Shown here piece after piece: positions 36,730-59,061 of a stretch of DNA of 64,000 bases. Source of the stretch: Clostridia bacterium (lineage in GTDB: Bacteria; Bacillota; Clostridia; Lachnospirales; JAOARL01); assembly GCA_025210555.1 (NCBI GenBank), contig JAOARL010000019.1:338-64337 (forward strand), read 5' to 3'. The notes beneath the pieces were generated by a model. It had not been told where the DNA came from. It saw only the letters and a program-made list of their open reading frames with translations, and searched no databases. Position 1 is the first letter of the stretch, and every line of letters starts with the position of its first letter. The position numbers and the translations under genes are program-made.

Positions 36730-36741
36730 GTGGAGGTAAAA

Positions 36742-39267: not shown

Positions 39268-39559
39268 TATTGAAATAAAAGAAGGGTCTCTGGTTGTTAA
39301 AGTTAATGATAAAATTAACATTTATAATGCCGAAGAAGGGGCAAATTTAACAAATTTAATTGAGGAAATAGGAGATTCACCAAATAAAGTGAAAGTTATC
39401 CCTTCTACGTTTAATGACTTTAAACTTAAAGTTTATGAAGAAGAAATTTTAGTTAAAATAGTAGAGTATATTTATAAGATAATTGATGCATTTAATGATG
39501 CATATTTTGAAGTTTATGAAAAAGAAAAAGTTAAAAAAACTAAAGGTATATGTAAATAG
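39245..39559 (+). CDS. small hypothetical protein overlapping the end of the PHP-ATPase gene
   Basis: A 104-codon ORF that overlaps the upstream stop by 23 nt. No motif. Confidence 0.5.
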   Translation: MRKKVELNIEIKEGSLVVKVNDKINIYNAEEGANLTNLIEEIGDSPNKVKVIPSTFNDFKLKVYEEEILVKIVEYIYKIIDAFNDAYFEVYEKEKVKKTKGICK

Positions 39560-39718: not shown

Positions 39719-40195
39719 ATGGCGTATCAAGATATTGCACAAATATGTAAAAACGGGCATTTAATTAATGCCAATTCAAATGAGTATCCAAAAGATAATT
39801 CAAAGTTTTGTAGACGATGTGGAGAGGTGGTCATAGATGAATGTGAAGGATGTAAAAGAAAAATAAAAGGGAATTATGTATATGATGATTATTTTATGCC
39901 AGATGAGTATGTTGTTCCTGATTATTGTGAAGAATGTGGAGAGGCTTATCCATGGACAAAAAAGAAAAAAGAAAGTTTAAAAGATTTATTGCAAGACACA
40001 GATTTAAGTGAAAAGGATCAAAATGATTTTATGAATTACATAGATGACATCATTTCTGAGAATCCAAGAACTGAATTAGCAGTACTAAAAGTCAAAGGAA
40101 TCTTACGAAAAATAACCAGTGGAGCACAAGAAGTGGCAAGAAGCTTAGTTATAGATATTGCTTCGGAGACTATAAAAAAATCATTTGATTTATAA
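39719..40195 (+). CDS. zinc-ribbon protein, DUF2321-like
   Basis: CKNGH...FCRRCG...CEGC...CEECG cysteine pattern. RBS AAGGAGGAA. Confidence 0.6.
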   Translation: MAYQDIAQICKNGHLINANSNEYPKDNSKFCRRCGEVVIDECEGCKRKIKGNYVYDDYFMPDEYVVPDYCEECGEAYPWTKKKKESLKDLLQDTDLSEKDQNDFMNYIDDIISENPRTELAVLKVKGILRKITSGAQEVARSLVIDIASETIKKSFDL

Positions 40196-43629: not shown

Positions 43630-43678
43630 TATAAAGATATAAAACTATATATTTTATGATGAGATGGAGAGGGGTATA

Positions 43679-44971
43679 ATGGAAAAGAATTTAGATCAAA
43701 TCTTTAACGAGTTTGCAAACATCCTTGGGTCCTTAAGGGAGTTAAATAAAAGTGTAATAAAACTTTCAGAGGATATGGTTAAGAGTGCTTTTGAGAGCAC
43801 GGTAGATGAATTAGAAGATATTTATTTAATTGTTTTTGAAAGCTTAGACTATAAGTTATTAACTAATTGTGGTAGCGAAGATATTTCTAAAGAGGATTTA
43901 ATAAAGATTGCTAATAATTTGATTGAAAATAAGAGTGAAGTACAAGAAAATGTGATTAATAGGTTTAGGAGAATGATAGAAAATAATACAGAAGAAAATC
44001 TTAATAAAATTTTAAAAGAAAAAGATGCTATCATTAAGCTTCATAAAGAACAAATAAAAGCTAACATGTCATATAGAGCAATGCTTTTTACATTGACATC
44101 TGCTACTGAAAATTTTTTGAAAGAAATATTAGAATACATTTATAGGAATTATGATAACAAAGAGTTTGATATTAATATAAAGTTTTCTTTATCAGATCTT
44201 AATGACTATGATTCAATAGACCACATGAGAGACGAGTTATTAAAAAAACAGATAGATAGTGTTTTTTGGGGAAATATTGAAAGTGTCATTAAAGAAATTC
44301 AAAAATATAATAAAAGTTATTTTTTAACTAAAAAAGAATTAAATGTATTGTATGAAATATTTGCTAGACGTAATATACATATGCATAATAATGGTAAAAT
44401 TAATCAGGCGTATATTTATAAAGTAACAAATGAAAGTTTAAGTATTGGTGAAGAGTTAATGCTATCAGCTGAGTATTTAGAATCAAGTATTTTAAATACT
44501 ATATATATGTCATATATTATCACTTTTGCAGTAGCTATAAATAGCAATCCAAAGAATAAGGATGAATATGTAAATAGATTACTATGCAGTTGTGTAGAGT
44601 TAATAGATGAAAAGGATTATTTTATAGCAAAACAGATATTGAATAAAATAGATAAAAGGGGGATATATGAAAATACAATTACTAAATATTTTATTTTAGT
44701 AAATAAATATTTAATAAAAATATTAGAAAATGAAATTAGAGAAAAGGATATGCATGAGTTAGAGAAAATTCAAAAAGAACTTAAATTTAGAAAGGAAGAT
44801 ACTCGAGAGCTTGCATTAGGGATTAATTGTTTGAGAGGCCAAAAAAAAGAATTTATAGAGAAAATAAGAGAGGTTAAAGCGGAAAAATTTCAAGAAAAAT
44901 TCTTAAGGTATCCAATAGTAAAATTATTAGACTTAACTAAATCTGAAAAAGAGTTTATTTTAAATATCTAG
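43679..44971 (+). CDS. hypothetical protein with a HEPN-like RNxxxH motif
   Basis: FARRNIHMHNNG fits the Rx4H HEPN signature within a helical context. RBS GGAGAGGGG lies before the ATG at 43679. Confidence 0.6.
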   Translation: MEKNLDQIFNEFANILGSLRELNKSVIKLSEDMVKSAFESTVDELEDIYLIVFESLDYKLLTNCGSEDISKEDLIKIANNLIENKSEVQENVINRFRRMIENNTEENLNKILKEKDAIIKLHKEQIKANMSYRAMLFTLTSATENFLKEILEYIYRNYDNKEFDINIKFSLSDLNDYDSIDHMRDELLKKQIDSVFWGNIESVIKEIQKYNKSYFLTKKELNVLYEIFARRNIHMHNNGKINQAYIYKVTNESLSIGEELMLSAEYLESSILNTIYMSYIITFAVAINSNPKNKDEYVNRLLCSCVELIDEKDYFIAKQILNKIDKRGIYENTITKYFILVNKYLIKILENEIREKDMHELEKIQKELKFRKEDTRELALGINCLRGQKKEFIEKIREVKAEKFQEKFLRYPIVKLLDLTKSEKEFILNI

Positions 44972-45167
44972 TGCTAGCAGGTTAATATATCGAATTATTT
45001 AAAAAGGAACTATTATTATGTTTTAAAATGAAGATAGAGCATAAATTATTAGTAAGTATTAGTAGAAAAGAATAGTTGTTATGTAGGAAATGTAATTAAA
45101 ATATGATGGGTAAAATAAATAAAAAAGTATTTGTCATTACTATTTAGGGGAAAATATTATTAAAGAG

Positions 45168-46061
45168 GTGATAGGTGTGTCGGATAATGATTGTGTGGAA
45201 AAAAATAAGATGATTTTTGAGAAGTTAGCTAATAAAATGATAGAATTAATTTCATTTGAGGAAAGTTGTTTTAATGAATGGAGAACGAAGGTAGAGTTGC
45301 CTGGTTGTGGAAAAACTTATAGAATAGAATTTGAAAGAACAACGTTGTTAGTACTGAAGCATAATCTTCAAGGTGAAGAACTTGAACTATTTATGAAGAT
45401 ATATAAAAATACTATCTCTCAAAATATCGATAAAGAAATAATTAAAACGTTAAATGAATATAAGATTCTGAGAAGAATTTTGGAGTTAGGGTATGTAAAT
45501 GAGAATGCAAAAATTCTAAAAAGTGAATCGCCAGATTTTATTCTTAAATCTAATACTGAAAAAATAGGAGTGGAGATTACAGAAATTATTACGGAATCAG
45601 ATGCGGTTTATAGAAAAGCGATTTTTAAGTTGGATGAGTTTAATAAAGATGTTGATAGAATTAAAAGTGAAATAATAGATAAATATCCTAAAAAAGGTAA
45701 AGGCATAAGCGTTGAATGTATTGATGTTGCAGATGAAAAAATACTAATAACATCACCTTCAAAAGGTCTTGTATCAATTAATTCAAAGAGAGACAAATAT
45801 GTGGAACAAATATTAAATAAGTTTAATAAGTATAATGAAAAATTTGATATATACGATAAAAATATTATATTAGCCAATCCAGGAGACATAATTTCTTTAA
45901 CTGAATGTTGGGAGTTTGAAGAAGTAGCAGATAATTTTTTTAAACGATTGGGCACAGAAGATGTGGAAAAAGATATACAGATTGTAATATTAGCGGATAT
46001 CCAACACAATAAAAAGTTGTTTGTAATAGATACCAAAAAAAGAGATAGGTATTTAATATAA
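45168..46061 (+). CDS. hypothetical protein, upstream partner of the KAP NTPase
   Basis: A 297-codon ORF lying 24 nt upstream of the next gene. No motif recognised. Confidence 0.6.
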   Translation: MIGVSDNDCVEKNKMIFEKLANKMIELISFEESCFNEWRTKVELPGCGKTYRIEFERTTLLVLKHNLQGEELELFMKIYKNTISQNIDKEIIKTLNEYKILRRILELGYVNENAKILKSESPDFILKSNTEKIGVEITEIITESDAVYRKAIFKLDEFNKDVDRIKSEIIDKYPKKGKGISVECIDVADEKILITSPSKGLVSINSKRDKYVEQILNKFNKYNEKFDIYDKNIILANPGDIISLTECWEFEEVADNFFKRLGTEDVEKDIQIVILADIQHNKKLFVIDTKKRDRYLI

Positions 46062-46088
46062 AAATATAGTATAGAACGGAGTAAAGTG

Positions 46089-47567
46089 ATGTTATTTACA
46101 AATAAACCTATAGAAAATTTGAAATACGATAATGATTATTTTAATATATTACCTAAAGCAGAGATAATTAGTGTATTCTTAAATAAAAATCAAGATAAGA
46201 TAAAGCAAAAAGAAATTAAAATGATCTCTTTGTATGGTAACTGGGGAAGTGGAAAGACAACGTTAATGAAATTTTTAGATAAGGATACAAGATCTAATTA
46301 TAAAACAATATTTTTTGAAGCATGGGAACTAGAAAGAGATTCTGATATAACATTATCTCTTTTAGAAAAACTAGCAGATGAGATTACAGGAAATACAAAA
46401 GTAAAGTTTGAGTTAAAAAGAAGTTGGTTAGAACTTAAGGAACTTTCGAAAGAAATTGTATATAACACCAAGATTAAGTCTCCTATAGTAGATTCACTTG
46501 AAATAGATTTTGGTGCTGCTGTAAAAAATGCATATGAAAAAGTTAGTGAAGAATACGAAAAAAAATCTTTATTTAAAGCAAGAGAAGTATTTAAGGAGAA
46601 ATTTGCAATAATTGAAAGTAAAACAAAAAAGAAGTCAATTTTGATTTTTGTAGATGATTTGGATAGATGTTCACCAGAAAATACTTTGAAGTTACTCACA
46701 GATATTAAATTGTTTTTCACGTTAGGAAGTAAAACTATTTTTTTTGTAGGATTAGATAAACAAGCGGTTAGTAAAGCTGTACAAACAAAGTATTATGATA
46801 TTGTAAAGTCAGAAGAGTATTTAGAAAAAATATTTGATATATCGTTTAATATGCCTAAAACAAATAGTATTAGAAAATTAATAAAGTTGTATGTAGATGA
46901 GGTATTGTTAGTTAAAGTGGATGCAGAGAATACTGTAGATAAATTAGTAAATTTTTTCAAAACAATAAAATTTACAAATCCTAGACATTTAAAAAAAGTA
47001 TTAAATAAGTATTATTTTCTGAAAGATTTATATGAGGGTGAGACAAATTCAAGTATCCCAAAAGGAATTTTCAAAAATGACGTGGTTACAATGATTTTTG
47101 TGTTATATTTTATAGTTATATATGAATATAAGCAGGATATTTATGAAGATTTAAAAGATATAAAGAAAAGAGACAAAGTTTATTATAACTTATATAGAGC
47201 GCCAGGAAGTAAGGACGAACAATCATGGGGGAATCACATGAGCAATTTGTTAACAGAATCTCCGATAAATATAAAAAAGTTGTTAGCGGGTCCAAGTAAC
47301 AGTAGACCAGTAATTGATGAATTTCAAAAGTTGGTATATACATTTACACCATCAGTTAAAAAAGAATTTCATATGAGGCAAGCTCCATATAGGGATATTA
47401 ATGAGAGATTTATAAGACAATTTGAAGATGAGGAGAGAGATAGTATAGCAACTGACTTTTTAAGAGTATTGAAGTATATTTTTGAGGAAAATTCAAAATA
47501 CGACTTGAGTGAAATAAGTGAGTATGATATCAAAAAAATATTTGAGTTTGCAGAATTGTATCTGTAA
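46089..47567 (+). CDS. KAP-family P-loop NTPase (soluble type)
   Basis: Walker A SLYGNWGSGKTT, FFEAWELE and Walker B ILIFVDDLDRCSPEN. No TM insertion is visible. Confidence 0.8.
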   Translation: MLFTNKPIENLKYDNDYFNILPKAEIISVFLNKNQDKIKQKEIKMISLYGNWGSGKTTLMKFLDKDTRSNYKTIFFEAWELERDSDITLSLLEKLADEITGNTKVKFELKRSWLELKELSKEIVYNTKIKSPIVDSLEIDFGAAVKNAYEKVSEEYEKKSLFKAREVFKEKFAIIESKTKKKSILIFVDDLDRCSPENTLKLLTDIKLFFTLGSKTIFFVGLDKQAVSKAVQTKYYDIVKSEEYLEKIFDISFNMPKTNSIRKLIKLYVDEVLLVKVDAENTVDKLVNFFKTIKFTNPRHLKKVLNKYYFLKDLYEGETNSSIPKGIFKNDVVTMIFVLYFIVIYEYKQDIYEDLKDIKKRDKVYYNLYRAPGSKDEQSWGNHMSNLLTESPINIKKLLAGPSNSRPVIDEFQKLVYTFTPSVKKEFHMRQAPYRDINERFIRQFEDEERDSIATDFLRVLKYIFEENSKYDLSEISEYDIKKIFEFAELYL

Positions 47568-47791: not shown

Positions 47792-47813
47792 GTTCGACTC
47801 CCCCCATCTCCAT
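47792..47813 (+). repeat. attR-type exact copy of the ssrA 3' end
   Basis: gttcgactccccccatctccat is identical to 33299-33320. Confidence 0.85.
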
Positions 47814-47922: not shown

Positions 47923-48996
47923 ATGAATTTAATGGAGACATTAAGTAAAACAGAAGAGAGAGAAAATGGAGGAGCTATTGCTAATCATAGATTTGAATTT
48001 CAAGAACATTGGGCTCTAATAAAGTTATTAGAGTTGTTTGTTGATAATGAAGACTTTATGTTAATTATGGAGTTCCATGATGATGTAATGGTATTAGATA
48101 AATCATTAAATCCAAGTTTGATGGAATTATATCAGATAAAAACAAATACAAAAAAAGTTAAAAACATAAATCCTACTAATAAAGAAAATTTAGAATATCT
48201 TAGGAAGTTGATATCTAATTATTCAAAATTTGAAAAGCATATAACAAATATTTATTTCATCTCAAATAAACATTTTAAAATAGGACTTAATGATATAAAG
48301 GATTCAACAACTTTAAATCAAATAAGGTTAAAAGATATAAAAGATGTAGAGATGAAAAAAATAAAGGAAAGTATTTGTGCGGAATGTAAAAAGCAGAATT
48401 GTAATGAAGAGTGTCGAGATGTAATTTTATTTAAAAAAAGTAAGTTGCCATTTGAAAATTTTAATGAGATTTCATATGGAAGGCTAATAGAGTTTTTAAA
48501 AAAAGTTGGTAATCCAAATTTAGAAGATGTAGATGCAATTTATTTTGCATTACTTTCACAAATAAGATTAGTTAACAATGTAGAAGAAAAAGCTAAAGAT
48601 TTTGAGGACTTAATAAAAAATAAAAGTATAACAAAGAAAAAAATGGAAGAATATATGAATGGCCTTAAAAGCAAAATAGAATTAAGAAAAGATTTGAGTT
48701 CAATTAGAACATTTTTAATAGAAAGCGGATTTAACCCTATGGAAGCAATTAAAATAGTAAATGAGTGGAAGAAATATTTTAAAGATAAGATAAATCAAAA
48801 CACGATGTTAGATGAAATAGAAGATAGTATATATGAAATCTTACGAACAAAAATTGATTTGAGCGATGACTTGAAAATTATTGTAAATGAGACGTGTAAT
48901 GAACTTATAGAGAAGAAAAAATTTGATGAAGACATTATTTCAAAAGAATATGTTAAGTCAATGATTTTGGAGAGGGTTATCAATGGAGAAAATTAG
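47923..48996 (+). CDS. Cap4/DUF4297-type nuclease-domain protein (LmuA-like)
   Basis: GGAIANHRFEFQEHWALIKLLEL...MEFHDDVMVLD...ELYQIKT matches the DUF4297 PD-(D/E)xK-like N-terminal block. Confidence 0.65.
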   Translation: MNLMETLSKTEERENGGAIANHRFEFQEHWALIKLLELFVDNEDFMLIMEFHDDVMVLDKSLNPSLMELYQIKTNTKKVKNINPTNKENLEYLRKLISNYSKFEKHITNIYFISNKHFKIGLNDIKDSTTLNQIRLKDIKDVEMKKIKESICAECKKQNCNEECRDVILFKKSKLPFENFNEISYGRLIEFLKKVGNPNLEDVDAIYFALLSQIRLVNNVEEKAKDFEDLIKNKSITKKKMEEYMNGLKSKIELRKDLSSIRTFLIESGFNPMEAIKIVNEWKKYFKDKINQNTMLDEIEDSIYEILRTKIDLSDDLKIIVNETCNELIEKKKFDEDIISKEYVKSMILERVINGEN

Positions 48997-49070
48997 TAGA
49001 GGTTTATTAGAAAAAAAAGAGAAGTATGAAAAATATAAAAAAATAATTAGAAATTTGAGGATGGGTAAAT

Positions 49071-50801
49071 ATGAACAAGCAAATACTATTAAAAAAACTA
49101 AAAATAATGTCAAAAAGTGAAAAAACATTTAAGGAAATAATTTTTGATGAAAAGTTAACTATTTTAAAAAGCGAGTTAGATGGTGGAGACACAACTAATA
49201 GAACTGGAAAATCTTTAATAATGAAAAGTATACCTTATGCATTTGGTGCAGAATTAGAAAAATACACTAAAAACTGGAAAAAATTGAGCATTGTGACTTG
49301 GCTAGAGTTTTCGTACATGAATGACGACTATCTTATTTTTAGAGATGGCGAAAAATTTATGGTTTACAAGAATAATATGATGTTTAATGCTGCAAAAAGT
49401 ATTGGTGAACTTAGAGATGTATATAGTGAATTGTTTGGGTTTAGTATTAAATTGGAGTTATCAAATAGAAGCGGAACTTCAACAATTTATCCAGGAGGAA
49501 TGTTGCTACCATTTTATATAGACCAAGATAAAGGGTGGGATGGTGAAAAACAATCTTTTGCAGATGTTAAATTTATAAAAGATTGGAGAAAGAACATATT
49601 ATACTTTTATACAGGAAGAAGGACAGAGAGATATTATGAAATACTTAAACTAAGAAGTGAACCAACAAAGAAAAGAGAAAAACTGAAGCATGAAAAAGCA
49701 GTCTTAGATAAATTAATTGATGAAGAAGAGTTTAAAAATATTGAATCATTAAAGGTTAATTTTGATTTAAAAGAATTTGAAGAAGAAACCAAAGAATTGA
49801 GCAATCTTTTAAATAAAAATTTAAAGCAAAAAGAATTGATACGAGAAAAACTTTTAAAACTTCATAATAAGCAATTTGAAATTAATCAAGAATATGAAAA
49901 TGCTAAAATTGGATTGGCAGAGTTAAGAAAAGATATTGATTACTTAAATAGCGAAATAAGAACAGAGGTTATTTTATGTCCGCTTTGTGGAACACGACAC
50001 GAAAATGATATTGAAAATAGATTTCTTGTTTACAAAGAAGAAAAAGAGTGTATTAAAATTATTGATAAATGCATTAATGAAGAAAGTAAAATTGCATTAG
50101 AATTAGAAAATGTTAAATTCGAACTTGAAGATATTTCAGCTGAGGTAAAAGAAATACAAGATATAATGGCTAGAAAGAAGGAAAATATAACATTTGAAGA
50201 AGTTGCAAAAGCTGAAGGAGTTAAACATCTTATAAAAGAACTTAAAGATAATTTAGAATATGTGGAAGAGAATATTTCAGGTTTGGATGGAGAAATAAAG
50301 AAGTATACAAATGAGATGACTCAAATAACAAAAAAATCTAAAAGCATTGAGGAAAAATTCCAAGCAACATTTAAAGAATATATTAAAACATTAAATGTAG
50401 TAGATTTTGAGGAAGAGGAGATTCATAAATTAGGTGACAAGATAAGCAGTGGAGGTAGTGATACTGCTAGAGCTATCTTGGCGGATTACTTAGCAATATA
50501 CAAGGTTATAGAAGGGAATCAAGCAATGCCTTTATTTCCAATAATAATAGACTCGCCTCGACAACAGGAACAAGGAACATTAAATTCATCAGCAATATTT
50601 GATTTTTTATTGGCAGATGATACAGAGAATGAAAACTATCAGATGATAATTGCTACTACAGAAATAGATAGCAAATATCAAAAAGATGCAAAAGTATATA
50701 ATTTTGTTGAGGTTAAAAGTTTACTTAAAAAAGAAGGATATGAAGAAACTTTTAGAGAATATCAAAATAATATAGCACATTTTTCAGCATGGACATTTTA
50801 A
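49071..50801 (+). CDS. SMC/Rad50-like ATPase with coiled coil (LmuB/DUF3732-like)
   Basis: P-loop TNRTGKSL, a long coiled-coil centre with CPLCG (hook-like), and C-terminal Walker B-like FPIIIDSPRQQEQ. Confidence 0.6.
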   Translation: MNKQILLKKLKIMSKSEKTFKEIIFDEKLTILKSELDGGDTTNRTGKSLIMKSIPYAFGAELEKYTKNWKKLSIVTWLEFSYMNDDYLIFRDGEKFMVYKNNMMFNAAKSIGELRDVYSELFGFSIKLELSNRSGTSTIYPGGMLLPFYIDQDKGWDGEKQSFADVKFIKDWRKNILYFYTGRRTERYYEILKLRSEPTKKREKLKHEKAVLDKLIDEEEFKNIESLKVNFDLKEFEEETKELSNLLNKNLKQKELIREKLLKLHNKQFEINQEYENAKIGLAELRKDIDYLNSEIRTEVILCPLCGTRHENDIENRFLVYKEEKECIKIIDKCINEESKIALELENVKFELEDISAEVKEIQDIMARKKENITFEEVAKAEGVKHLIKELKDNLEYVEENISGLDGEIKKYTNEMTQITKKSKSIEEKFQATFKEYIKTLNVVDFEEEEIHKLGDKISSGGSDTARAILADYLAIYKVIEGNQAMPLFPIIIDSPRQQEQGTLNSSAIFDFLLADDTENENYQMIIATTEIDSKYQKDAKVYNFVEVKSLLKKEGYEETFREYQNNIAHFSAWTF

Positions 50802-50802: not shown

Positions 50803-50903
50803 GTGAGAAAATGGAGGTTGACTGCGTCGAACCCCCGTCCAAGTTTAGAGCTATTTTTGCATAAGAATTGACGTGAATGTAGCGAGGTACGGTCCATCTC
50901 CAT
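50803..50903 (+). repeat. conserved cassette right-end module R2, ending in the CATCTCCAT core
   Basis: Homologous to 36490-36592. It contains gtcgaacccccgtcc, the reverse complement of ssrA ggacgggggttcgac. The core is at 50895-50903. Confidence 0.75.
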
Positions 50904-51021
50904 CGCCACTAGACACAATTCGCTGTATCGTAAGTAAGAAAAGGGATACAGACTGAAAAGAATTTGTGGATAACTTTTTTGAATAAGACGTTGAACGTCA
51001 GACACAATTTAATATATTATC

Positions 51022-51065
51022 AAGGGCATAAAAAATTACTAAAAGGGGTTTTTATGTCCTTTTTT
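51022..51065 (+). terminator. cassette-leader hairpin + U-tract, copy H4
   Basis: aagggcataaaaa...tttttatgtcctttttt. RBS AGGAGGG and the ATG at 51083 follow. Confidence 0.75.
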
Positions 51066-51082
51066 ATTAGGAGGGATTACAT

Positions 51083-52300
51083 ATGACTGCTCAAGTCGCT
51101 GTAATGAATAAAAGAGCTGTTGCCTTAGCTACAGATAGTGCTGTAACAATCAATGGTGGAAGTAAAATTTATGATAGTGCTAATAAACTATTTATGTTAT
51201 CAAAAAAGCAACCTGTTGGGATAATGGTATACAGTAATGCAGAATTTTTAAGAGTTCCATGGGATATAATAATAAAAGGTTTTAGGAACTATATCGAATC
51301 TAAAAAGTTTGACTATTTAGGGGACTATAAAAGAGAATTTATGGAATATATAAAATCAAAAAGTGATGAATTCGAACTTGGAAAAACGTTTTCAGTAAGA
51401 AATATATATTCAATGATACTTGAGGATATATACGTTTTCTTAAGATCAAACTATACCGAAAGATACACAGGGGCAGAAGATTTTAATGAACTAATATTTA
51501 ATATTTTAAAGGAATATGACGATATAATAAAAAATGAAAGAGAACTATATGCAGGTTTTGATAATCTTATAGGTGAATTGACTAATTATAAACAAAGTCT
51601 AAATCAAATGATTACAAAAAGATTTGGAAGTTTAAGTAAAAGAAATTTTAATTTAATAAAACAAATTTGTCGTAATTCTTTTAAGAAAGATAGATATCAT
51701 AATGCTATAAGTACAGGTGTGGTTATTGCAGGTTATGGTGAAAAAGAAATTTTTCCAGTACTAGAAAATATAGAGATTAGTACAATGATAGGTAACAGCG
51801 TTGTATATAAGAAGAATGATAAGATTGCTATTAATGAAAGAAGCGATAGTTATGTACATGCTTTTGCTCAAAAGGAAACTGTTAACACATATTTATGGGG
51901 AATTAATGATAGATATATTAATAGTTTTGATGGTATAATAAAAGAAACAGTAATACCATTAAGTAATGATATTGGAAAAGATATGGTTGAAAGAATTTTA
52001 GCTAATTGGCAAAAAGGTATCGAGAAAATATTGGCTGATGCGAGAACTGACAATATTAAACCATTTATGGATGCCATACGCAGTTTGCCTAAGAGTGAAT
52101 TGGGGAATTTAGCGGAATCATTAGTTGATTTAACTTCAATAAAAAGGAGATTTACAATCAATAACTTAAGTAATACAGTTGGAGGTCCTATTGATGTTGC
52201 TATAATATCAAAAGATGATGGGTTTATTTGGTGCAAAAGAAAACATTATTTTGAAGCTGATTTAAATCATCATTTTTTTAAAAATTATTATGAGGGGTGA
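51083..52300 (+). CDS. proteasome beta-subunit-like (Ntn-hydrolase) N-terminal domain protein with a large C-terminal extension
   Basis: The N-terminus M-TAQVAVMNKRAVALATDSAVTINGGSKIYDSANKLFML aligns by eye with HslV/20S-beta. Thr is directly after Met, Asp is at mature position 17 and Lys at about 34. Confidence 0.5.
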   Translation: MTAQVAVMNKRAVALATDSAVTINGGSKIYDSANKLFMLSKKQPVGIMVYSNAEFLRVPWDIIIKGFRNYIESKKFDYLGDYKREFMEYIKSKSDEFELGKTFSVRNIYSMILEDIYVFLRSNYTERYTGAEDFNELIFNILKEYDDIIKNERELYAGFDNLIGELTNYKQSLNQMITKRFGSLSKRNFNLIKQICRNSFKKDRYHNAISTGVVIAGYGEKEIFPVLENIEISTMIGNSVVYKKNDKIAINERSDSYVHAFAQKETVNTYLWGINDRYINSFDGIIKETVIPLSNDIGKDMVERILANWQKGIEKILADARTDNIKPFMDAIRSLPKSELGNLAESLVDLTSIKRRFTINNLSNTVGGPIDVAIISKDDGFIWCKRKHYFEADLNHHFFKNYYEG

Positions 52301-52304
52301 TTAT

Positions 52305-52469
52305 ATGAAAACTAATCTAAAAGATATGCTAGATTTGGAACTTAAAGCAAAAACGTTTGATTATAAATTGGATAATAGTAAGATAAAAAAATCAAAAAAA
52401 GAGGAAAAATTAAAAAAGCATTTAAAAAAGCAAATAAACAAAGAAATGCTATGTTGTTTAAAAAGTTAG
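52305..52469 (+). CDS. 54-aa Lys-rich peptide ending in CCLKS
   Basis: The ATG lies 4 nt after the upstream stop, with GAGGGGTG serving as RBS. It is too short for the supplied ORF track. Confidence 0.35.
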   Translation: MKTNLKDMLDLELKAKTFDYKLDNSKIKKSKKEEKLKKHLKKQINKEMLCCLKS

Positions 52470-52502: not shown

Positions 52503-52542
52503 AAGGGCATAAAAACTAGAAGAAATTTTTATACCCTTTTTT
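52503..52542 (+). terminator. cassette-leader hairpin + U-tract, copy H5
   Basis: aagggcataaaaa...tttttataccctttttt. No att core lies in front of it. Confidence 0.7.
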
Positions 52543-52653
52543 GTTGAAGTGCAATTATGATAGAAAAAGAAAGATGACACTATTCATGTATTTATGGGGT
52601 ATCAAATTATGAGTAAATAGTTGATTTTTTGATTAATAGAGGGTGAATAAAAG

Positions 52654-53889
52654 ATGACATTAACAAAAATGAGAAGCATGATGAAAGAAATTAATGCCTT
52701 AGCAAAAAATGATGAAAAAAAGGCTAAAGAAGAATTTATCCAGCTGATAAGAGATTTACATAGTGAACGAGAATTTGAAAAAATTTTAGAATTAAGCAGA
52801 ACGGCTAATGGAAAGAAATTTAAAACTGATATTTTTGAAATTGCATATGCATATAGAGAATTAGACTATAATAATGAAGCTGAAAAGATATATAAAGAAA
52901 TATTAAAAAAATATCCTGATAATGTTGCGGTTTTAAATAATCTAACTCTTATTCTTGAAGAAAAAAATGGGATTAGAGATGCTTTTTACTTAATTGAAAA
53001 GGCGTATGCTTTAGAGCCTGAAGATGAAGTTGTTAAAAATAATTATCAAAGAATTGAAGAAAAGATAGCAGAAGTTGAAGCAAGTGAGAGGATGCAAAAA
53101 AATGCATGTTTAAATTTGGAAGATGAAAACGAATTTGTTAGGGCTAAGTTAAATGAATTTATATATAATGTAGAAAAAGATCCAGGTTACAAAAATGAGG
53201 AAATCTATATTGCAAATTGGAAGTTTAAAGTTCTTATGAAAACAAATGAGGGAATAGCTGATTCTTTAAAAATACAGTGGTTAGAAAAAGGATATATAAT
53301 TGATTTAGGGAAAAGAGATAGTAGATATGTTAAATGTTATAAGTTAAATCCGTTTTTGAAGAAATCTTTGGAAGAAATAAAACAATATGAAATAAATAAA
53401 AATTGGATTGAAAATTTTGAAAGTGTTAATAAATTAACTTTGATGAAAATAGATTATTTTAAAAATAAAGTTAGATTAAATAAAGCAAAAAGTAAATATA
53501 GAGATATGTTTTTAAGGGATTATGATGAGATAGTTCTTAATTATATTTTTAAAAATAGTAAATCGACTATTATTTTGGCAGGTTCTTTAGTTGAAATGTT
53601 ATTGATATACTACTGTGAAAAAAAGAAAGTAAAGATAATATCATATACGAGGAATAATAAAAAGGTGTCTAAAAACATTTATGATGTTCAACTTAATGAT
53701 TTACTACTATACTTTGATGAGAATAATATTTTTTCAAAACAATTATTCCATTTAGGTAATATAACAAGAATATATAGAAATTTTATTCATCCTGGAAGAG
53801 AGTTGAAAGAGTCAAATAAATTAGCTTTTTCGCAAGCTGAGATTTGTTATCAAAGTTTGAATGAAATAATAAAAACAGTAATAAGATAA
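52654..53889 (+). CDS. TPR-repeat protein with a C-terminal HEPN-like (RNFIH) module
   Basis: TPR-like AYAYRELDYNNEAEKIYKEILKKYPDNVAVLNNL. C-terminal ITRIYRNFIHPGRE. Confidence 0.6.
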   Translation: MTLTKMRSMMKEINALAKNDEKKAKEEFIQLIRDLHSEREFEKILELSRTANGKKFKTDIFEIAYAYRELDYNNEAEKIYKEILKKYPDNVAVLNNLTLILEEKNGIRDAFYLIEKAYALEPEDEVVKNNYQRIEEKIAEVEASERMQKNACLNLEDENEFVRAKLNEFIYNVEKDPGYKNEEIYIANWKFKVLMKTNEGIADSLKIQWLEKGYIIDLGKRDSRYVKCYKLNPFLKKSLEEIKQYEINKNWIENFESVNKLTLMKIDYFKNKVRLNKAKSKYRDMFLRDYDEIVLNYIFKNSKSTIILAGSLVEMLLIYYCEKKKVKIISYTRNNKKVSKNIYDVQLNDLLLYFDENNIFSKQLFHLGNITRIYRNFIHPGRELKESNKLAFSQAEICYQSLNEIIKTVIR

Positions 53890-54455: not shown

Positions 54456-54899
54456 ATGACAACTAAATTGATGAATATGTGTATGATAACAAATGAAAAG
54501 GGAGAAATGCTATTTCAAGAAAGAATAAAGAGTTGGAAAGGAGCAGCATTTCCAGGGGGTAAACTGGAAGAATTAGAGAGCGTTATTGAGAGTGTAGTAA
54601 GAGAAGTTAAAGAAGAAACAGGTTTAAATGTATATGAACTTGAGTTTTGTGGATTTAAAACTTGGGTAAAAGAAGATGATAAAGTAACAAATATAGTTTT
54701 TTGTTTTAAAACTAACAAGTTTGATGGAGAACTTATTGAAGAATCTTCAGAAGGAAGACATTACTGGTTATCAAAAGATAAACTGAAAGATATAGAATTA
54801 GCAGATAACTTTGAAGCTACATTAGATTTATATTTTACAGATATGACAGAATTGGTCTGGAAAAAAGAAAACAAAAAATGGAATGAAAATCGCTATTAA
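54456..54899 (+). CDS. Nudix hydrolase
   Basis: Complete Nudix box GGKLEELESVIESVVREVKEETGL (Gx5Ex7REUxEExGU). Confidence 0.85.
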   Translation: MTTKLMNMCMITNEKGEMLFQERIKSWKGAAFPGGKLEELESVIESVVREVKEETGLNVYELEFCGFKTWVKEDDKVTNIVFCFKTNKFDGELIEESSEGRHYWLSKDKLKDIELADNFEATLDLYFTDMTELVWKKENKKWNENRY

Positions 54900-55033
54900 A
54901 TATATTTTAATTTGTTTAGTAGTTATATGAAAAATTAATTGAAAAAGTGTTATTTCATAATATTTCAAAAACAGAACTTGATTACATACGATATATGTTT
55001 TTGAGTTATATTAAAAATAAAGGAGTGTTTAAA

Positions 55034-55963
55034 ATGAGTGATAAAAGAGTAGTATGTATAGGTAATATGACCCATGATACTTTATTACGTGTTAATGATA
55101 TACCTGAACTTGATGACGTAGCGTATGTTAATGAGAACGTTGAATGTATGGGAGGAAGAGGTGCAATCGTTGCTATAGCATTGGGTAGACTGGGAATTTC
55201 AACTGATCTTATTACGTCATTACCAAGTAATGAACTAACAGATAAATATATTGAATTGTTAAATGAAAATAATGTAGAAACTAAAAATATATTTATAGAT
55301 GATAAAGCCAATAAATTATTTGAAGTGGTTGTTGCTATTTCTAAAGAACAATCAAACTGTATTTCTTTTTTTAAGCCAAGTGATATTAAATTTGAAGCGA
55401 ATCAAAAGCAAAAGGAGAAAGTTAGAGCAGCTGATATGGCGTATTTTTCAACTCATAAAAGATCTTTTAATCAAGAATTATTAAATGAAATAGATCCTCA
55501 AAAAACACAAATAATACATAATGTAAGTAGTTATTTCTTACAATCAGAAGAGTATGTTAAGTTAATGTTAGAAAAAAGTAGTGTTTTAGTTTTTAATGAA
55601 CTTGAAGCCAAAAAACTTCTTGAAAATATTCGAGAATTATCTGCAGAAACGATATTTAAAAGTGCTCCAAATCTTGATACTATTTTCATGACGTGTGGAG
55701 AATCAGGTTCAATGATATATGAAAAAACAGGCAAAGTAACTCATGTTGAAGCTAAGATGGCGACAGAAGTAATATCGCCTGTAGGAGCTGGTGATACTTA
55801 TGCAGCAGGGATTGTTTATGGAATAGCGAATGGTTGGGATAATGAATTAAGTGCTAGATTTGCTAGTGAGATAGCATGTCTTTCCGTTGAGAGTGAAACA
55901 TCATATCCAAATTTAGAAAAATTAGATGATTTAACTCTGGAATGTGGGGAGATGGACATATGA
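55034..55963 (+). CDS. PfkB-family (ribokinase-like) sugar/nucleoside kinase
   Basis: GGRGAIVAIALGRLG and the signature SPVGAGDTYAAG. The ATG at 55034 is preceded by AAAGGAGTG. Confidence 0.8.
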   Translation: MSDKRVVCIGNMTHDTLLRVNDIPELDDVAYVNENVECMGGRGAIVAIALGRLGISTDLITSLPSNELTDKYIELLNENNVETKNIFIDDKANKLFEVVVAISKEQSNCISFFKPSDIKFEANQKQKEKVRAADMAYFSTHKRSFNQELLNEIDPQKTQIIHNVSSYFLQSEEYVKLMLEKSSVLVFNELEAKKLLENIRELSAETIFKSAPNLDTIFMTCGESGSMIYEKTGKVTHVEAKMATEVISPVGAGDTYAAGIVYGIANGWDNELSARFASEIACLSVESETSYPNLEKLDDLTLECGEMDI

Positions 55964-56394
55964 AAATCTATCTAGCTGCTTCAGTATTTTCGGTTTTTGA
56001 AAGAGAGCTAAATGTGAGTATTGCGAAAATGATAACTGAGTTAGGAGGTCATTCTGTTTTTCTTCCACAAGAAGTTGCACCACCTGAAACCGAAGATGGA
56101 CTCGATATGGAATATATATATAAAGAATGTAGAGACCATATAGATTCGTCCGATGCAATTTTAGCCATTGTAGATGGTTCAGATGTAGATTCGGGAGTAG
56201 CATGGGAATTAGGATATGCTTTTGCAAAAAATGTTCCAAGTTTGTGCATTAGGACAGATATAAGAAAAGCTGAACATAATGGCGTAAACATAATGATTGA
56301 ATATGGGGCAAGTAAGACGATTCATTTAACTAAATACCATCAAAAAATAAAGGACGTTGTAGATAGAATAATTGAAGAATTGGAGGCAATATAA
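55960..56394 (+). CDS. nucleoside 2-deoxyribosyltransferase-family protein (NDT / DNPH1 / BlsM-like N-glycosidase fold)
   Basis: MKIYLAASVF...DGSDVDSGVAWELGYAFA, with the catalytic-Glu context typical of PF05014. ATGA overlap with the kinase stop. Confidence 0.7.
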   Translation: MKIYLAASVFSVFERELNVSIAKMITELGGHSVFLPQEVAPPETEDGLDMEYIYKECRDHIDSSDAILAIVDGSDVDSGVAWELGYAFAKNVPSLCIRTDIRKAEHNGVNIMIEYGASKTIHLTKYHQKIKDVVDRIIEELEAI

Positions 56395-56395
56395 T

Positions 56396-56854
56396 ATGGA
56401 GAAAAAAAAGATTTTAATGTCAATTAATACAAAGTACTCAAGAAAAATTTTTAAGGGTACTAAATTATGGGAATTTCGTAAAGCAATCCCTAGAATAGAA
56501 GAGACTGATGAATTAGAAGTTGTAGTATATTCATCACAAGAAGAGAAAGCAATTGTAGGAAGTTTTAAAGCAGGTCAAATATTGAGATGTTCACTAGATG
56601 AATTAATGGAAAAAACAGGATATAGTGATGATTCAGATGCTGTTGAATGGTTCAGTGCATACTATGGTGATAGGAAAATTTGTAGCGCCATTGAGGTTAT
56701 AGAACCGATAGAGTACGAAAAGCCGATTACACTTAACGAAATTAGAGAAGTCATTCCATCATTTAGACCTCCTCAAAATTTTGTGTACATAACATCGGAG
56801 AGTAATCTTGAAGAGGTGCTTGAACCTTTTGAAGTAGGTGAAGTAGGTGAATAA
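56396..56854 (+). CDS. ASCH (PUA-like) domain protein
   Basis: ILMSINTKYSRKIFKGTKLWEFRK...VVVYSSQEEKAIVGSF...FRPPQNFVY matches the ASCH/COG4933 pattern. Confidence 0.65.
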   Translation: MEKKKILMSINTKYSRKIFKGTKLWEFRKAIPRIEETDELEVVVYSSQEEKAIVGSFKAGQILRCSLDELMEKTGYSDDSDAVEWFSAYYGDRKICSAIEVIEPIEYEKPITLNEIREVIPSFRPPQNFVYITSESNLEEVLEPFEVGEVGE

Positions 56855-57935
56855 ATTAGTCGAACCAAAATTAAGTGTAGTTGAATTAGATAAGATAATT
56901 TTGCGTAGATTAAAAGATTATCCCGATTATCATAAAGAGTTTATTGGAGCAGTTACCAATAGTATAAAAAATGACTATGATGAGATTACAGATGATTTTG
57001 CTAAAAATCTGATCGCGGTAGATAAAAAAGGATATGATGAATTTGGATATTTTACATTGGGAAAAGATATCTGGTTGATATTTGATAAAAATACAAATGA
57101 ATTTTTAGGATTTGAGGTAATAACTAGGAAACGTGGTGGAAGTATTAAATTAGGACCAACTTATCTTAAACCTGAGGCTCGAGGGGGGGGATATGCAGTA
57201 CAAATGATAGAAGGATTATGTAGGATATATGCATCCAAGGGAGCTAGGAAAGTTTATGTTACAGCTCCATTAGGTCATAAATCTACAGCAATTTTAGATT
57301 TTAATCATTTAAATTTAAAATTAGAAGCTATACTGCATAATCATTATTCAAAAGGGTCCTCGGAAAGGATATGCGGAAAATTTATTAATGATAATTCGTC
57401 TGTAAATACAATGGTTCCACGAGTTAAAAGCGGGAATAAGAAGATTATTAATATATATGAAGATGGATTAAGGTATGTCGAATACGATGAGTTTTCAGAA
57501 TTTATAATTGAGAATATGAAGCCTAATTATAATGATATAGACCATACTTTTGTAGAATCCATTTTTAATGGTGTTAAAATGGGAATTGAAACAAAGTATG
57601 AAAAGAAAGGAAAAGTAGCATTTACTTTCTTTTCAAATGATGCATTTGAAGGTATTGCTGTCGCAGCACTTAAAAGAGGTGGAGTTTTTAAAGTCGCACC
57701 GTTCTTACTTACGGATGAATGTATTACAATGGTTAATGTAACGAATATAATTAAGAAAATTGAAGAATATGCTATGAAGTATAAAAGAAGAAAAATTACG
57801 ATTTTATTGCCTGTTCGTGATTTAAATATTGCTAATATTTTATCTCAAAATTATTTCATTTCAGAAGGTGTTTTACGAGAACCTTATAAAGATGGAGTTG
57901 ACATTGTAGTGTTTTCAAAGGAATTAAGTATATAG
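56847..57935 (+). CDS. GNAT-family acyltransferase-like protein (possibly two GNAT-like halves)
   Basis: LKPEARGGGYAVQMIEGLCRIYASKGARKVYV resembles the acyl-CoA-binding motif A. GTG start overlaps the ASCH stop by 8 nt. Confidence 0.5.
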   Translation: MNKLVEPKLSVVELDKIILRRLKDYPDYHKEFIGAVTNSIKNDYDEITDDFAKNLIAVDKKGYDEFGYFTLGKDIWLIFDKNTNEFLGFEVITRKRGGSIKLGPTYLKPEARGGGYAVQMIEGLCRIYASKGARKVYVTAPLGHKSTAILDFNHLNLKLEAILHNHYSKGSSERICGKFINDNSSVNTMVPRVKSGNKKIINIYEDGLRYVEYDEFSEFIIENMKPNYNDIDHTFVESIFNGVKMGIETKYEKKGKVAFTFFSNDAFEGIAVAALKRGGVFKVAPFLLTDECITMVNVTNIIKKIEEYAMKYKRRKITILLPVRDLNIANILSQNYFISEGVLREPYKDGVDIVVFSKELSI

Positions 57936-57954
57936 AAGAATGAGTTGATATATA

Positions 57955-59061
57955 ATGGATAGGAATATAAAAGAAAAAAAATGCAACGATTTTGAAAATC
58001 AAAAAACAGTAATGAATATTGAGGAATGGCATAATGTTGTTAATGATAAATTAGGTATTAGTGGTGGAACTATTTATAGTTCGTCAGGATCAACTGGTAA
58101 TAGTAAGAGCATAATTTATACAGATGATGTCATGAATGCTGCAGTAAGGAGAACTAAGGAATTTATAAGTTTAACTCCACTATTAAGCAATTGCAAAATA
58201 GCAATTTTGTGGGGGTATGGATTATTTCCACCAGCATCTTTTTATAATCGCGCTTTAAGTGAGATGGGAAATATTGTATATCCATTTGGATCAGGAAGAA
58301 ATTTTCCTAGTGAATTGAAAGCTACAAAATTAGGTGAAATAAAGCCAAAAGTAATTATAGGTATGCCTAGTTATATACTAAGGATATGTAATATCCTAAA
58401 AGAAAAAAAATTACTAGAAAAAGTAAGCGAAAAATTGGAGTTTATAATAACTGGTGGTGAAGTTTTGACGACCTTCTACCGTAAGACCTTGGAAGAAGAA
58501 TTTGGAGTTAAGGTCTTCGATCACTACGGCATGCTACAGGCTCCAATGATAGCAGGAGAATGTTCTGAAGGTAAAATGCATATATCTAAAGAGTATAAGT
58601 CAGAAGTCTTGATGAGCGATTCAAAAATTTCAGAGATGGGGCGAGGAATTTTATTATTGTCGAGTGAAAAAGCTTGGTTTCCGTTAGAGTTAGAACGTTT
58701 AAATGTGGAAGATAATGTAATACTGAGTAAAGATAAATGTTCTTGTGGATATGAAACACCCACTATAAAAATAATAGGAAGAAGTAACTTGAAATATAAA
58801 GTGCGAGGACAATTAGTTGATTTTGATGAATTAATAACTAGGTTGAATGTATTAGGATTTGAGAATAAATACTTTGTTGAGGTTAAAGATTTTAATAACG
58901 AATTGATATTTCATATTAGCAATGAAATATCTAAAGAGAAATTTAAAGAGGAAGTAAATAAAATTATTTCATTTACATACTTTGTTGAGAGTCATGAAAA
59001 GATTGAATTTTTACTAACAAATACAGGTAAAATTAAGCGCATAATAATTAGAAATAATTAG
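57955..59061 (+). CDS. adenylate-forming enzyme, PaaK / F390-synthetase-like (short ANL-superfamily ligase)
   Basis: SSGSTGNSKSIIYT (the P-loop-like A3 motif), ITGGEVL, DHYGMLQAP and a C-terminal NTGKIKR lysine. Confidence 0.65.
   Translation: MDRNIKEKKCNDFENQKTVMNIEEWHNVVNDKLGISGGTIYSSSGSTGNSKSIIYTDDVMNAAVRRTKEFISLTPLLSNCKIAILWGYGLFPPASFYNRALSEMGNIVYPFGSGRNFPSELKATKLGEIKPKVIIGMPSYILRICNILKEKKLLEKVSEKLEFIITGGEVLTTFYRKTLEEEFGVKVFDHYGMLQAPMIAGECSEGKMHISKEYKSEVLMSDSKISEMGRGILLLSSEKAWFPLELERLNVEDNVILSKDKCSCGYETPTIKIIGRSNLKYKVRGQLVDFDELITRLNVLGFENKYFVEVKDFNNELIFHISNEISKEKFKEEVNKIISFTYFVESHEKIEFLLTNTGKIKRIIIRNN

Follow-up and report, generated by a model that had tools for sequence, protein, structure and literature searches.

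Proteasome-fold proteins beyond the 20S proteasome and HslV have been catalogued, but functionally they are still blank. In 2021, the census of Fuchs, Alva and Lupas (Bioinformatics) added 22 new proteasome homologs, including the types termed 'Proteasome homolog with Multiple Insertions' (PMI) (PMC8665760). Two of these, PMI-3 and PMI-4, have no propeptide and carry a long insertion at the site between helices H1 and H2 together with an insertion between H3 and H4; PMI-4 is the most populous and most widely spread PMI group, with members in Proteobacteria, Firmicutes, Actinobacteria, Bacteroidetes, PVC, Cyanobacteria, Euryarchaeota and phages, and its function is unknown (PMC8665760). The insertions at the two sites were argued to hinder the assembly of rings and double rings, and the census found neither a genomic context nor a co-occurrence that hinted at a function (PMC8665760). 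Here, we describe a gene for a protein of this kind with 405 amino acids (aa), and a small open reading frame (ORF) directly downstream of it, in 64,000 nucleotides (nt) of DNA of a Clostridia bacterium (contig JAOARL010000019.1; this whole stretch is called the window in the following).

Judged by its features and by the published description, the 405-aa protein appears to be a PMI proteasome homolog, probably of type PMI-4. As in PMI-4, a proteasome core with Thr1, Asp17 and Lys33 is combined with the lack of a propeptide and with both insertion sites, and, again as in PMI-4, the family extends over a broad range of bacterial phyla, Euryarchaeota and phages. The PMI-4 representative HDY66466.1 was not a member of the clusters to which the ten homologs closest to the consensus belong. 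A preliminary description of the window had implied that the family was unknown, which does not hold, as its features fit those of catalogued PMI homologs (PMC8665760); a family that is catalogued, though functionally uncharacterized, is not categorically new. What is new in comparison with the literature that we found is the small partner, the strict Met-Thr start in more than 130 loci, and the recurrent placement as a phage moron, as satellite cargo and in defence islands, whereas PMI-4 had emerged from the census without an informative context. Literature linking proteasome or N-terminal nucleophile (Ntn) proteins to phage defence, and the papers citing the census, yielded no functional study of the family; a known defence system with a proteasome-type Thr peptidase was found neither as a PADLOC match nor in literature searches. 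We propose, with a probability of about 0.45, that the peptidase gene and the small ORF constitute a self-contained conflict module, that is, phage-excluding cargo with a logic like that of toxin-antitoxin (TA) systems.

Searches with the single sequence of the 405-aa protein were uninformative (phmmer against the PDB gave no real match), and the fold was seen only with profiles and with a predicted structure. An exhaustive HMMER search retrieved 6350 clusters of homologs at 50% identity, 3801 of them at E<=1e-30, and a word-indexed search retrieved 3843 clusters at 90% identity. Nearly all homologs have 415-450 aa and a match that begins at residue 1, every named one is 'hypothetical', and the full-length match in PHROGs (phrog_5990, E 2.6e-92) is to a family of unknown function. 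An alignment of 40 diverse homologs revealed nearly invariant residues M1 and T2, the invariant residues N9, D18, S19, T22 and K35, the conserved blocks SGxVIAGFG..EIFP, PFAQ and LPK.ELA.MAESLV, and a strongly conserved C-terminal stretch, TVGGPIDVAVISKGDGFIWIKRKHYF, with many invariant positions.

When the full-length profile was compared with the PDB, the best three matches were archaeal proteasome beta subunits (E about 1e-3), which were aligned over two colinear blocks. Thr2 of the query corresponds to the mature Thr1 (3c91_H), Asp18 to Glu17 and Lys35 to Lys33 of the Thermoplasma beta subunit, while the C-terminal block TVGGPIDVAIISKDDGF (VGGPiDVAvIskgDGF in the profile) pairs with SGGMIDVAVITRKDGY of the proteasome and a longer stretch of the profile (setVGGPiDVAvIskgDGFi) with DSASGGMIDVAVITRKDGYV; the block TVGGPIDVAIISKDDGFIW is aligned with the Asp166-Gly170 region and with strands S9-S10. 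Excision of both helical insertions improved the E value from 1.1e-3 to 3.9e-5 (1pma_B), and the N-terminal alignment then reached through H1 and H2. The AlphaFold2 model (pLDDT 88, pTM 0.85) contains strands at residues 4-50, 211-262 and 370-385 and helices at residues 60-200 and 264-357. In it, H1 and H2 are separated by the helices 79-181, and H3 and H4 by a long helix (299-334). Among the 50 matches listed in a Foldseek search of the PDB, the first 45 were 20S subunits or Anbu with a probability of 1.00 (best E 1.3e-5, target-normalised TM-score 0.38-0.57), and the top match among the viral models of BFVD was a phage 'proteasome beta type-2 subunit'. Thus, profile search, AlphaFold2 and Foldseek agree on the proteasome-beta/HslV-type Ntn hydrolase that had been proposed for this gene, and, as far as alignments and models can tell, it is practically certain that the protein adopts the alpha-beta-beta-alpha sandwich of the proteasome family. 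In the model, the fold runs from residue 1 to about residue 390 and is broken by insertions at about 72-185 and 298-336; the preliminary division into an Ntn 'head' and some 330 unrecognisable residues is therefore replaced by a fold that spans the whole chain.

The putative catalytic residues are conserved to a high degree. We collected 80 loci from species-representative genomes, of which 78 are N-terminally complete, and all 78 begin with [M/L/V]-Thr (76) or -Ser (2) at the equivalent position. The same is true for all 54 distinct viral loci (MT 50, LT 2, MS 2), so that the nucleophile directly follows the start codon in 132 of 132 complete loci, as Thr in 128 and as Ser in 4. The reading of the window protein as an ORF with a Met-Thr start and proteasome-like spacing, which after removal of the Met gives Thr1, Asp17 and Lys34, is thereby extended to a Thr/Asp/Lys set that is kept across the family: D18 and K35 are without exception in the aligned homologs, and the only replacement of Thr2 in the 132 loci is by Ser. 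Thr after the initiator is a good substrate for methionine aminopeptidase, and HslV of E. coli, which starts with MTTIV..., likewise has its Thr directly after the initiator Met. Because of this position, it is predicted that the nucleophile can be exposed without autoprocessing. The invariant Gly46 on strand S4 (PVGIM) is set three positions off the oxyanion Gly47 by the alignment of hidden Markov models (HMMs), a placement that is ambiguous. From the pattern of conserved residues, it is likely that the protein is an active hydrolase; the nucleophile would probably be Thr, and peptidase, amidase or transpeptidase chemistry are all possible.

The peptidase gene of the window starts with ATG, encodes a protein beginning with MTAQVAVMNKRAVALATDSAVT...SANKLF (MTAQVAVMNKRAVALATDSAVTINGGSKIYDSANKLF) and ends with TGA at 52298-52300. 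After a gap of 4 nt, an ATG at 52305 opens the small ORF, whose 54-aa product (MKTNLKDMLDLELKAKTFDYKLDNSKIKKSKKEEKLKKHLKKQINKEMLCCLKS) contains 17 Lys, has a net charge of +9 and ends with CCLKS. Its coordinates agree with those first described, to which we add a Shine-Dalgarno motif of its own, GAGGGG, situated within the end of the peptidase gene 7 nt 5' of the ATG, a location that suggests translational coupling of the small ORF. Another possible start, ATG 52290, would yield 59 aa but has no Shine-Dalgarno motif.

Similar small ORFs accompany most homologs. Counting as a partner any small same-strand ORF that starts between -45 and +60 nt from the peptidase stop, we found one in 65 of the 80 genome loci (43-108 aa, mostly 50-75 aa) and in 49 of the 54 viral loci, while the same criterion applied to other genes of the same loci as a control was satisfied by 99 of 497 (20%). 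The short ORF, first noticed in a single locus, is thus a conserved partner of the peptidase gene. Gene callers also place it next to several homologs. Of six records of phages, satellites and plasmids that were inspected after the initial search, three have it annotated, as has an E. faecium plasmid (Streptococcus satellite, 55 aa; Providencia phage, 58 aa; Porphyromonas phage, 55 aa; E. faecium plasmid, 56 aa). In two E. coli prophages in RefSeq, unannotated ORFs of 49 and 34 aa, both starting with MS[LI]KQA, follow the peptidase gene; they are located at 9264-9413 of locus L176 (ETEC-2265, NZ_CP023346.1) and at 9207-9311 of locus L177 (Res13, NZ_CP062811.1), respectively. The ETEC-2265 pair, with the peptidase WP_000123148.1, occupies 1791826-1793282 of NZ_CP023346.1. 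It should be noted that, in RefSeq, the Res13 peptidase is annotated with 33 additional residues at its N-terminus, which would bury the Thr nucleophile, and that the conserved MTAEI start lies inside this annotation.

Forty-nine of 69 partners belong to one HMM family, in which a basic N-terminus is followed by a helix containing the motif [FY]xSxxE[FY]xxx[YF][FL]P (with an invariant Pro), by a charged variable linker, and by an amphipathic second helix, DPxxxGxxLAxExLxxIxxxL. Partners from Clostridia and Bacilli diverge beyond this main HMM, and Cys-rich C-terminal tails are present in the window (..CCLKS) and in loci L015 (..SCCLL) and L017 (..YYCY). In 30 paired loci, the mean pairwise identity is 42.5% for the enzymes and 23% for the partners, and the divergences of the two are correlated (Spearman 0.44, p 6e-22), as would be expected if two genes are inherited together and the smaller one evolves rapidly; judged by these identities, the partner would evolve at about double the rate of the enzyme. 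Searching with a profile of the partner family retrieved only 51 close relatives of 44-87 aa, without fusions, annotated domains or any other Rosetta-stone clue, and library scans identified no DNA-binding fold in the partner. One metagenomic protein (P0031, 471 aa, lacking the first seven residues) looks like a fusion of a peptidase with a partner of the Firmicutes type through a frameshift near the stop (…HHFFKTIIISVRRRQVMANKSDSDKFFIRYLRENY…); it is probably an artefact of sequencing or assembly and not a true fusion. Clustering of 698 neighbours in the 80 genome loci revealed no family in more than five loci, and hence no third conserved gene; on these grounds, we rejected a system of three genes in which the pair would be joined by the TPR protein downstream of it in the window or by Lamassu upstream of it. 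We are confident that the peptidase and the small ORF are a functional two-gene unit.

The distribution of the family is patchy, with at least 578 confirmed matches among the representative genomes of 185,579 species. Carriers are found among Clostridia, Bacilli, Bacteroidota, Proteobacteria, Planctomycetota, Chloroflexota, Cyanobacteria, Actinobacteria, methanogens, ANME and DPANN archaea, and about 35% identity is retained between archaeal and bacterial members. The gene is also present in viruses (13 GenBank phage records and 198 IMG/VR contigs) and on plasmids (ten records, in Rhizobium, Mesorhizobium, Ruegeria, Pantoea and E. faecium). In Streptococcus satellites that resemble phage-inducible chromosomal islands (Javan103 and others), the pair forms the end of the cargo, behind the gene for the small terminase (terS); Streptococcus phage Javan85 has it at the end of the prophage, behind holin and lysin, and in a Stenotrophomonas phage it adjoins the holin. 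In a lambdoid Providencia phage and in E. coli ETEC-2265, it is located between the antiterminator Q (with an adjacent methylase) and the lysis genes, which we take to be the slot of Stx-type morons, and in the Res13 prophage it lies directly downstream of a cI-like repressor, presumably the slot of lambda rexAB. Known examples of cargo in such slots of temperate phages are rexAB, sieB and stx. The most frequent PHROG families up to two genes away on each side of the pair in the 54 viral loci are Q-like antiterminators (10), CI-type repressors (9), HNH endonucleases (7), holins (5) and endolysins (3), and ImmA-like metallopeptidase matches also occur among the viral neighbours. Cargo slots of this kind in phages and satellites are known hotspots of antiviral systems (PMC9122126).

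A different position was observed in the Porphyromonas phage phage022a_WW2931 (BK068103.1), where the pair (locus L086, 6001-7437) lies inside the morphogenesis module, between portal, adaptor and methyltransferase genes and neck and tail genes. This raised the possibility of a head-maturation protease, which was discarded because most copies are found outside structural modules.

Mobility is also evident in cellular genomes. Only 22 of 5426 complete E. coli genomes contain the gene, and both loci inspected are inside prophages. Some chromosomal copies are accompanied by an integrase with TIR, PIN and Zeta-toxin genes, one copy by a serine recombinase, a primase and AbiTii, and in some genomes the immediate neighbours are proteins of DISARM, BREX, Hma, restriction-modification or PD-T4-6 systems. 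The notion of a stand-alone cassette has therefore been strengthened: phages, satellites, plasmids and islands carry the pair, with no other conserved neighbour.

The following mechanism could be envisaged. The product of the first gene would be a PMI-type Ntn hydrolase without a propeptide, in which methionine aminopeptidase exposes the Thr, and the mature Thr1 together with Asp17 and Lys33/34 would complete a triad of the proteasome type. The helical insertions would probably gate the active site or bind partners, rather than permit a closed barrel like that of the 20S particle. The second, translationally coupled gene would provide a small protein of two helices, basic for the most part, that binds to the enzyme with which it co-evolves, probably via the helical insertions, which would take the place of the ring contacts. 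The small protein might block the active site, or it might serve as a sensor or adaptor; phage infection would remove or re-target it, and the peptidase, thus released or redirected, would cleave an essential protein of the host or the phage, resulting in exclusion or abortive infection. Type II TA systems consist of neighbouring, co-transcribed genes, with one product neutralising the other and an antitoxin that is labile and usually binds DNA. The pair resembles them in its operon structure and predicted coupling; its second component is small, basic and fast-evolving, and no DNA-binding fold was identified in it. A role in conflict or defence of any kind seems somewhat better than an even bet. 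The further-reaching proposition, that PMI-type homologs and their partners constitute a widespread anti-phage system acting by abortive infection or exclusion, the first with a proteasome-fold Thr peptidase as its effector, is more tentative than the proposed conflict module as such, and the specific assignment of the partner as an inhibitor is doubtful.

Several observations weigh against the proposed conflict module. No obvious partner ORF exists in about 10-20% of the loci, and the small ORF of the window has no detectable homology to the main partner HMM family; it is tied to the partners of homologs only by position, size and charge and by a weak similarity to other Firmicutes partners. 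Neither protein of the window matches a model of Pfam, NCBIfam or PADLOC; in PADLOC-DB v2, both are without a defence family at E<=1, while the neighbouring LmuA, LmuB and KAP NTPase match strongly. Many genome loci lie among housekeeping genes (citrate synthase, ThiC, ALAD, tRNA synthetases). The homologs are by no means restricted to housekeeping genes outside mobile contexts, and genomic context does motivate the conflict role that had been suggested at the outset as a candidate role. In addition, the support network of active 20S beta subunits, formed by Ser129, Asp166 and Ser169, is not kept according to the alignment: the position of Ser169 is occupied by the invariant Val366, that of Asp166 is variable, and PFAQ stands in place of the GSG region. 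The activity could thus differ, for example, toward an amidase or a ligase. As the network is not required across the wider superfamily, its loss weakens the case for canonical proteasome chemistry and leaves membership in the fold untouched. Lastly, peptidase activity, the role of the small protein and a defence phenotype are what we infer, and the direction of control between the two proteins (inhibitor, adaptor or substrate) purely so.

The missing network also raises the question of whether the protein is a catalytically inactive scaffold that has kept the proteasome fold and works by binding. Proteasome-fold subunits that are inactive do exist, such as the alpha subunits and several eukaryotic beta subunits. 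Such a scaffold is very improbable, since a position 2 that is strictly Thr or Ser across more than 130 loci, together with D18 and K35 conserved in the 40 homologs, would be hard to explain without catalysis. A more serious competitor, though still an unlikely one, is an enzyme with a dedicated substrate, in which the small protein, instead of regulating the enzyme, would be cleaved by it, or ligated in the manner of Connectase, at '..YFP..' to give an active peptide or a tagged product; such a pair could still have a conflict-related role. The invariant Pro in a conserved linear motif of the main partner family, the co-variation of enzyme and partner, and the non-canonical residues at the positions of Ser129, Asp166 and Ser169, which leave room for other chemistry, would be in accordance with it, and Connectase, a monomeric proteasome homolog that is a sequence-specific ligase, provides a precedent (PMC8665760). 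However, the motif is missing from the partners of the window, the Firmicutes and the enterobacteria, the neighbour clustering of the 80 loci found no modification or export genes accompanying the pair, and the signature of Connectase (an insertion between S3 and S4 and no H1/H2) is not seen.

The two-gene coupled operon with its small, fast-evolving second gene, its residence on plasmids, satellites, prophages and integrative islands, and the lack of conserved neighbours would equally suit a plain addiction (TA) module that stabilizes its mobile elements and has no anti-phage role. We consider this rather improbable: to our knowledge, TA toxins of 400 or more aa with a proteasome fold are without precedent, many chromosomal copies lie outside recognisable mobile elements, and the preferred prophage slots, next to cI and between Q and the lysis genes, are typical of exclusion genes expressed in the lysogen (PMC9122126). 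Moreover, roles in TA and abortive infection can coexist. A protease that serves regulation or quality control in the cell together with a small adaptor, spread horizontally and found in mobile and defence contexts only incidentally, would account for the many loci amid housekeeping genes; HslV and the 20S proteasome are housekeeping enzymes, and Fuchs et al. saw no context suggestive of a function (PMC8665760). We rate it a shade lower than plain addiction, because such a protease would not be expected to be so patchy (at least 578 matches in the 185,579 species) and yet about 35% identical between archaea and bacteria, to be restricted to 22 of 5426 E. coli genomes and prophage-borne in both loci inspected, to be carried by 198 viral contigs, or to lack an unfoldase and any fixed partner besides the small ORF. 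Lastly, the pair might serve the phage itself, either as a counter-defence enzyme that degrades host immune proteins or as a regulator of lysis and lysogeny, for example by cleaving a repressor. Its prophage positions beside cI-type repressors and Q antiterminators and the ImmA-like metallopeptidase matches among its neighbours would be consistent with such a function, which is nevertheless improbable, as most copies are outside prophages, including those in archaea, on plasmids and beside Lamassu, satellites hold the pair in a cargo slot, and there is no fixed association with a repressor.

The features of the locus in the window are compiled in Table 1. The Shine-Dalgarno motif of the peptidase gene lies 7 nt 5' of its ATG.

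Table 1. Coordinates of the two genes, their segments and their flanking elements in the window
Feature	Position	Strand	Basis
Upstream junction element: terminator-like hairpin (GGGCATAAAAA...TTTTTATGTCC) and T-run	51022..51066	+	Repeat search, folding
Shine-Dalgarno motif AGGAGGG of the peptidase gene	51069..51075	+	Sequence reading
Gene for the putative PMI-type proteasome-like Ntn hydrolase, 405 aa; candidate residues Thr2 (mature Thr1), Asp18, Lys35	51083..52300	+	
Core segment 1, residues 1-71: S1-S4 with Thr/Asp/Lys, then H1	51083..51295	+	AlphaFold2; alignment to 1pma_B residues 9-96
Helical insertion 1, about residues 72-185, between H1 and H2; variable in length, weakly conserved	51296..51637	+	AlphaFold2, alignment
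Core segment 2, about residues 186-297: H2, S5-S8 (SGxVIAGFG..EIFP, PFAQ), H3	51638..51973	+	AlphaFold2, alignment
Helical insertion 2, about residues 298-336, between H3 and H4	51974..52090	+	AlphaFold2, alignment
Core segment 3, residues 337-405: H4 (LPK.ELA.MAESLV), block TVGGPIDVAIISKDDGFIW, family-specific KRKHYF motif	52091..52297	+	Alignment, profile
Shine-Dalgarno motif GAGGGG of the small ORF	52292..52297	+	Sequence reading
Small partner gene, 54 aa; positional equivalent of the 45-75-aa partners of homologs	52305..52469	+	ORF and homolog loci
Downstream junction element: second hairpin copy and T-run	52503..52546	+	Repeat search, folding

The pair is part of a defence island. A tmRNA gene (32974-33322) is followed by about 20 kb of defence-type cassettes, and the last 22 nt of the tmRNA recur at 47792-47813 as an att-type direct repeat. 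At each cassette boundary, a unit of about 45 nt is found (TTAATAGTTATTAAGGGCATAAAAA-loop-TTTTTATGYCC-T-run), which consists of a conserved 25-mer and a terminator hairpin and is present in five copies (33394, 36664, 47855, 51005 and 52486), the first being the terminator region that directly follows the tmRNA. Their folding energies are -8 to -14 kcal/mol. The hairpin in front of the peptidase gene (51022-51061, -13.4 kcal/mol, z -3.6, followed by a U-run), which had been regarded as a leader, does exist, but it is the repeated junction terminator of the preceding unit and not a specific leader; the copy that closes the cassette (52503-52538, -8 kcal/mol) probably ends the two-gene operon. 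Rfam scans of the 280-nt upstream spacer detected no RNA family, and a promoter-like match just upstream of the hairpin (50991-51020) is at chance level in this AT-rich DNA. The 25-nt junction repeat was not found in the metagenome contigs scanned for it. A direct repeat of about 110 nt (36490-36600, after the gene for a 1010-aa KAP NTPase, and 50803-50913, after LmuB; 87% identity over 82 nt) contains a degenerate and partly inverted sequence like the 3' end of the tmRNA (GTCGAACCCCCGTCC ... CATCTCCAT), and the two copies are probably old att remnants.

The island comprises, in this order, the 1010-aa KAP NTPase, an 849-aa ABC ATPase (Ppl/AriA-like), a DUF2321 protein, a tyrosine integrase, a replisome-organiser gene, two proteins without a family match, a second KAP NTPase (PDC-S20/PifA-like), Lamassu, the Ntn pair, a TPR protein and a NUDIX gene (PDC-S07). 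This layout suggests that the island was built by tandem accretion or cassette exchange at ssrA, with the Ntn pair as one discrete unit; by analogy, it would recall the attC-bounded cassettes of integrons, but with an ordinary tyrosine integrase. Lamassu, immediately upstream of the pair (LmuA with a Cap4 nuclease domain; LmuB E 4e-122), had been recognised in the preliminary description, while the HEPN-like cassette assigned to the other side was not recovered, as the downstream 411-aa protein gives TPR matches only. That protein (52654-53889) forms a hairpin-bounded cassette of its own, with N-terminal TPR repeats and a C-terminal half without a family or PADLOC match; its end, ...TRIYRNFIHPG, contains an R-x6-H (or RN-x2-H) motif that could be HEPN-like.

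Other genes of the window may also merit attention. The two KAP P-loop NTPases (33448-36480, 1010 aa, and 46086-47567, 493 aa) match PifA, QatA and PDC-S20 models, and the larger one has about 700 extra residues without an assignment. The 849-aa ABC/SMC-like ATPase (36718-39559; PADLOC matches to Ppl, AriA and PDC-M49A) is followed by an overlapping 104-aa ORF and the DUF2321 zinc-ribbon protein (39719-40195), an arrangement that may be PARIS-like or OLD-like. Between the replisome-organiser gene and the KAP NTPase, adjacent proteins of 435 and 297 aa (43664-46061) had no match in the libraries searched and may represent another undescribed cassette. A 45-aa Lys-rich ORF (48983-49120) overlaps LmuA and LmuB in a place like that of LmuC in some Lamassu systems, and has no model match. 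After the island, a co-directional run (54456-59061) encodes NUDIX (PDC-S07, E 1.5e-11), a PfkB kinase, a nucleoside 2-deoxyribosyltransferase, two unknowns and an AMP-binding-like enzyme. Its gene content resembles that of an operon for the modification of nucleotides or nucleosides, possibly related to defence.

For a branch of the proteasome family in which the 2021 census saw no genomic clue, the present analysis provides new handles, i.e. a small and often unannotated partner gene, a strict Met-Thr start that predicts a propeptide-free nucleophile, and a cargo lifestyle in antiviral slots. If the pair should indeed act in defence, a new class of proteases would join the immune effectors, and regulated proteolysis of the proteasome type would be tied to antiviral conflict in prokaryotes; as an anti-phage system, it would give a function to a large orphan branch, whose more than 6000 clusters (at 50% identity) are spread over bacteria, archaea, phages and satellites. 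If it should not, the pair would still be a compact model for the control of a proteasome-like active site in which neither rings nor unfoldases take part, and it may also offer a specific peptidase or ligase for biotechnology, as Connectase did. The candidate is unusually clean, widespread and experimentally tractable, and native copies exist in E. coli prophages.

How does the pair compare with systems that are already known? With the 20S beta subunits and HslV, the window protein has in common the fold, the N-terminal Thr, Asp17, Lys33 and a C-terminal block of the form GG-x-(I/V)-D/x-V-A-V-I-x-K-D-G, but it is about twice as large owing to the two helical insertions, and Ser129, Asp166 and Ser169 are not conserved in it. 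The term 'self-compartmentalising', applied to it earlier, is doubtful, as insertions at these positions have been argued to clash with the assembly into rings (PMC8665760). The family is, moreover, patchy and mobile and has no alpha subunit, HslU or AAA+ neighbour; HslV, in contrast, is a compact subunit of about 175 aa encoded beside the AAA+ unfoldase HslU, and no AAA+ gene is adjacent to the 405-aa protein.

Anbu, BPH, PPH and AAH are likewise prokaryotic proteins with a proteasome fold and with an unknown or poorly known function, and chains of Anbu are among the best Foldseek matches of the window protein. Anbu is encoded in a conserved operon with ATP-grasp and transglutaminase genes. 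None of the four combines two insertions or a small downstream partner with the fold, and PPH, with about 140 aa and without H2, differs from the window protein in size and architecture; spread by phages is a trait that PPH and AAH also have (PMC8665760). Connectase, which acts on one protein via a short recognition motif, is the precedent for reading the pair as an enzyme with a small substrate. It has no H1/H2 and carries a two-helix insertion between S3 and S4, whereas the window protein keeps both H1 and H2 and has its insertions elsewhere. Connectase is also restricted to methanogens and is no mobile cassette. Although they have no relation to the window pair in sequence or fold, lambda RexAB (downstream of cI), the protease Lit and the TA-type abortive-infection systems, as examples of exclusion modules borne by prophages and satellites, share its genomic niches, namely the immunity region beside cI, the moron site between Q and the lysis genes, the cargo end of satellites, and defence islands; like it, they are small self-contained operons with variable neighbours and a patchy spread.

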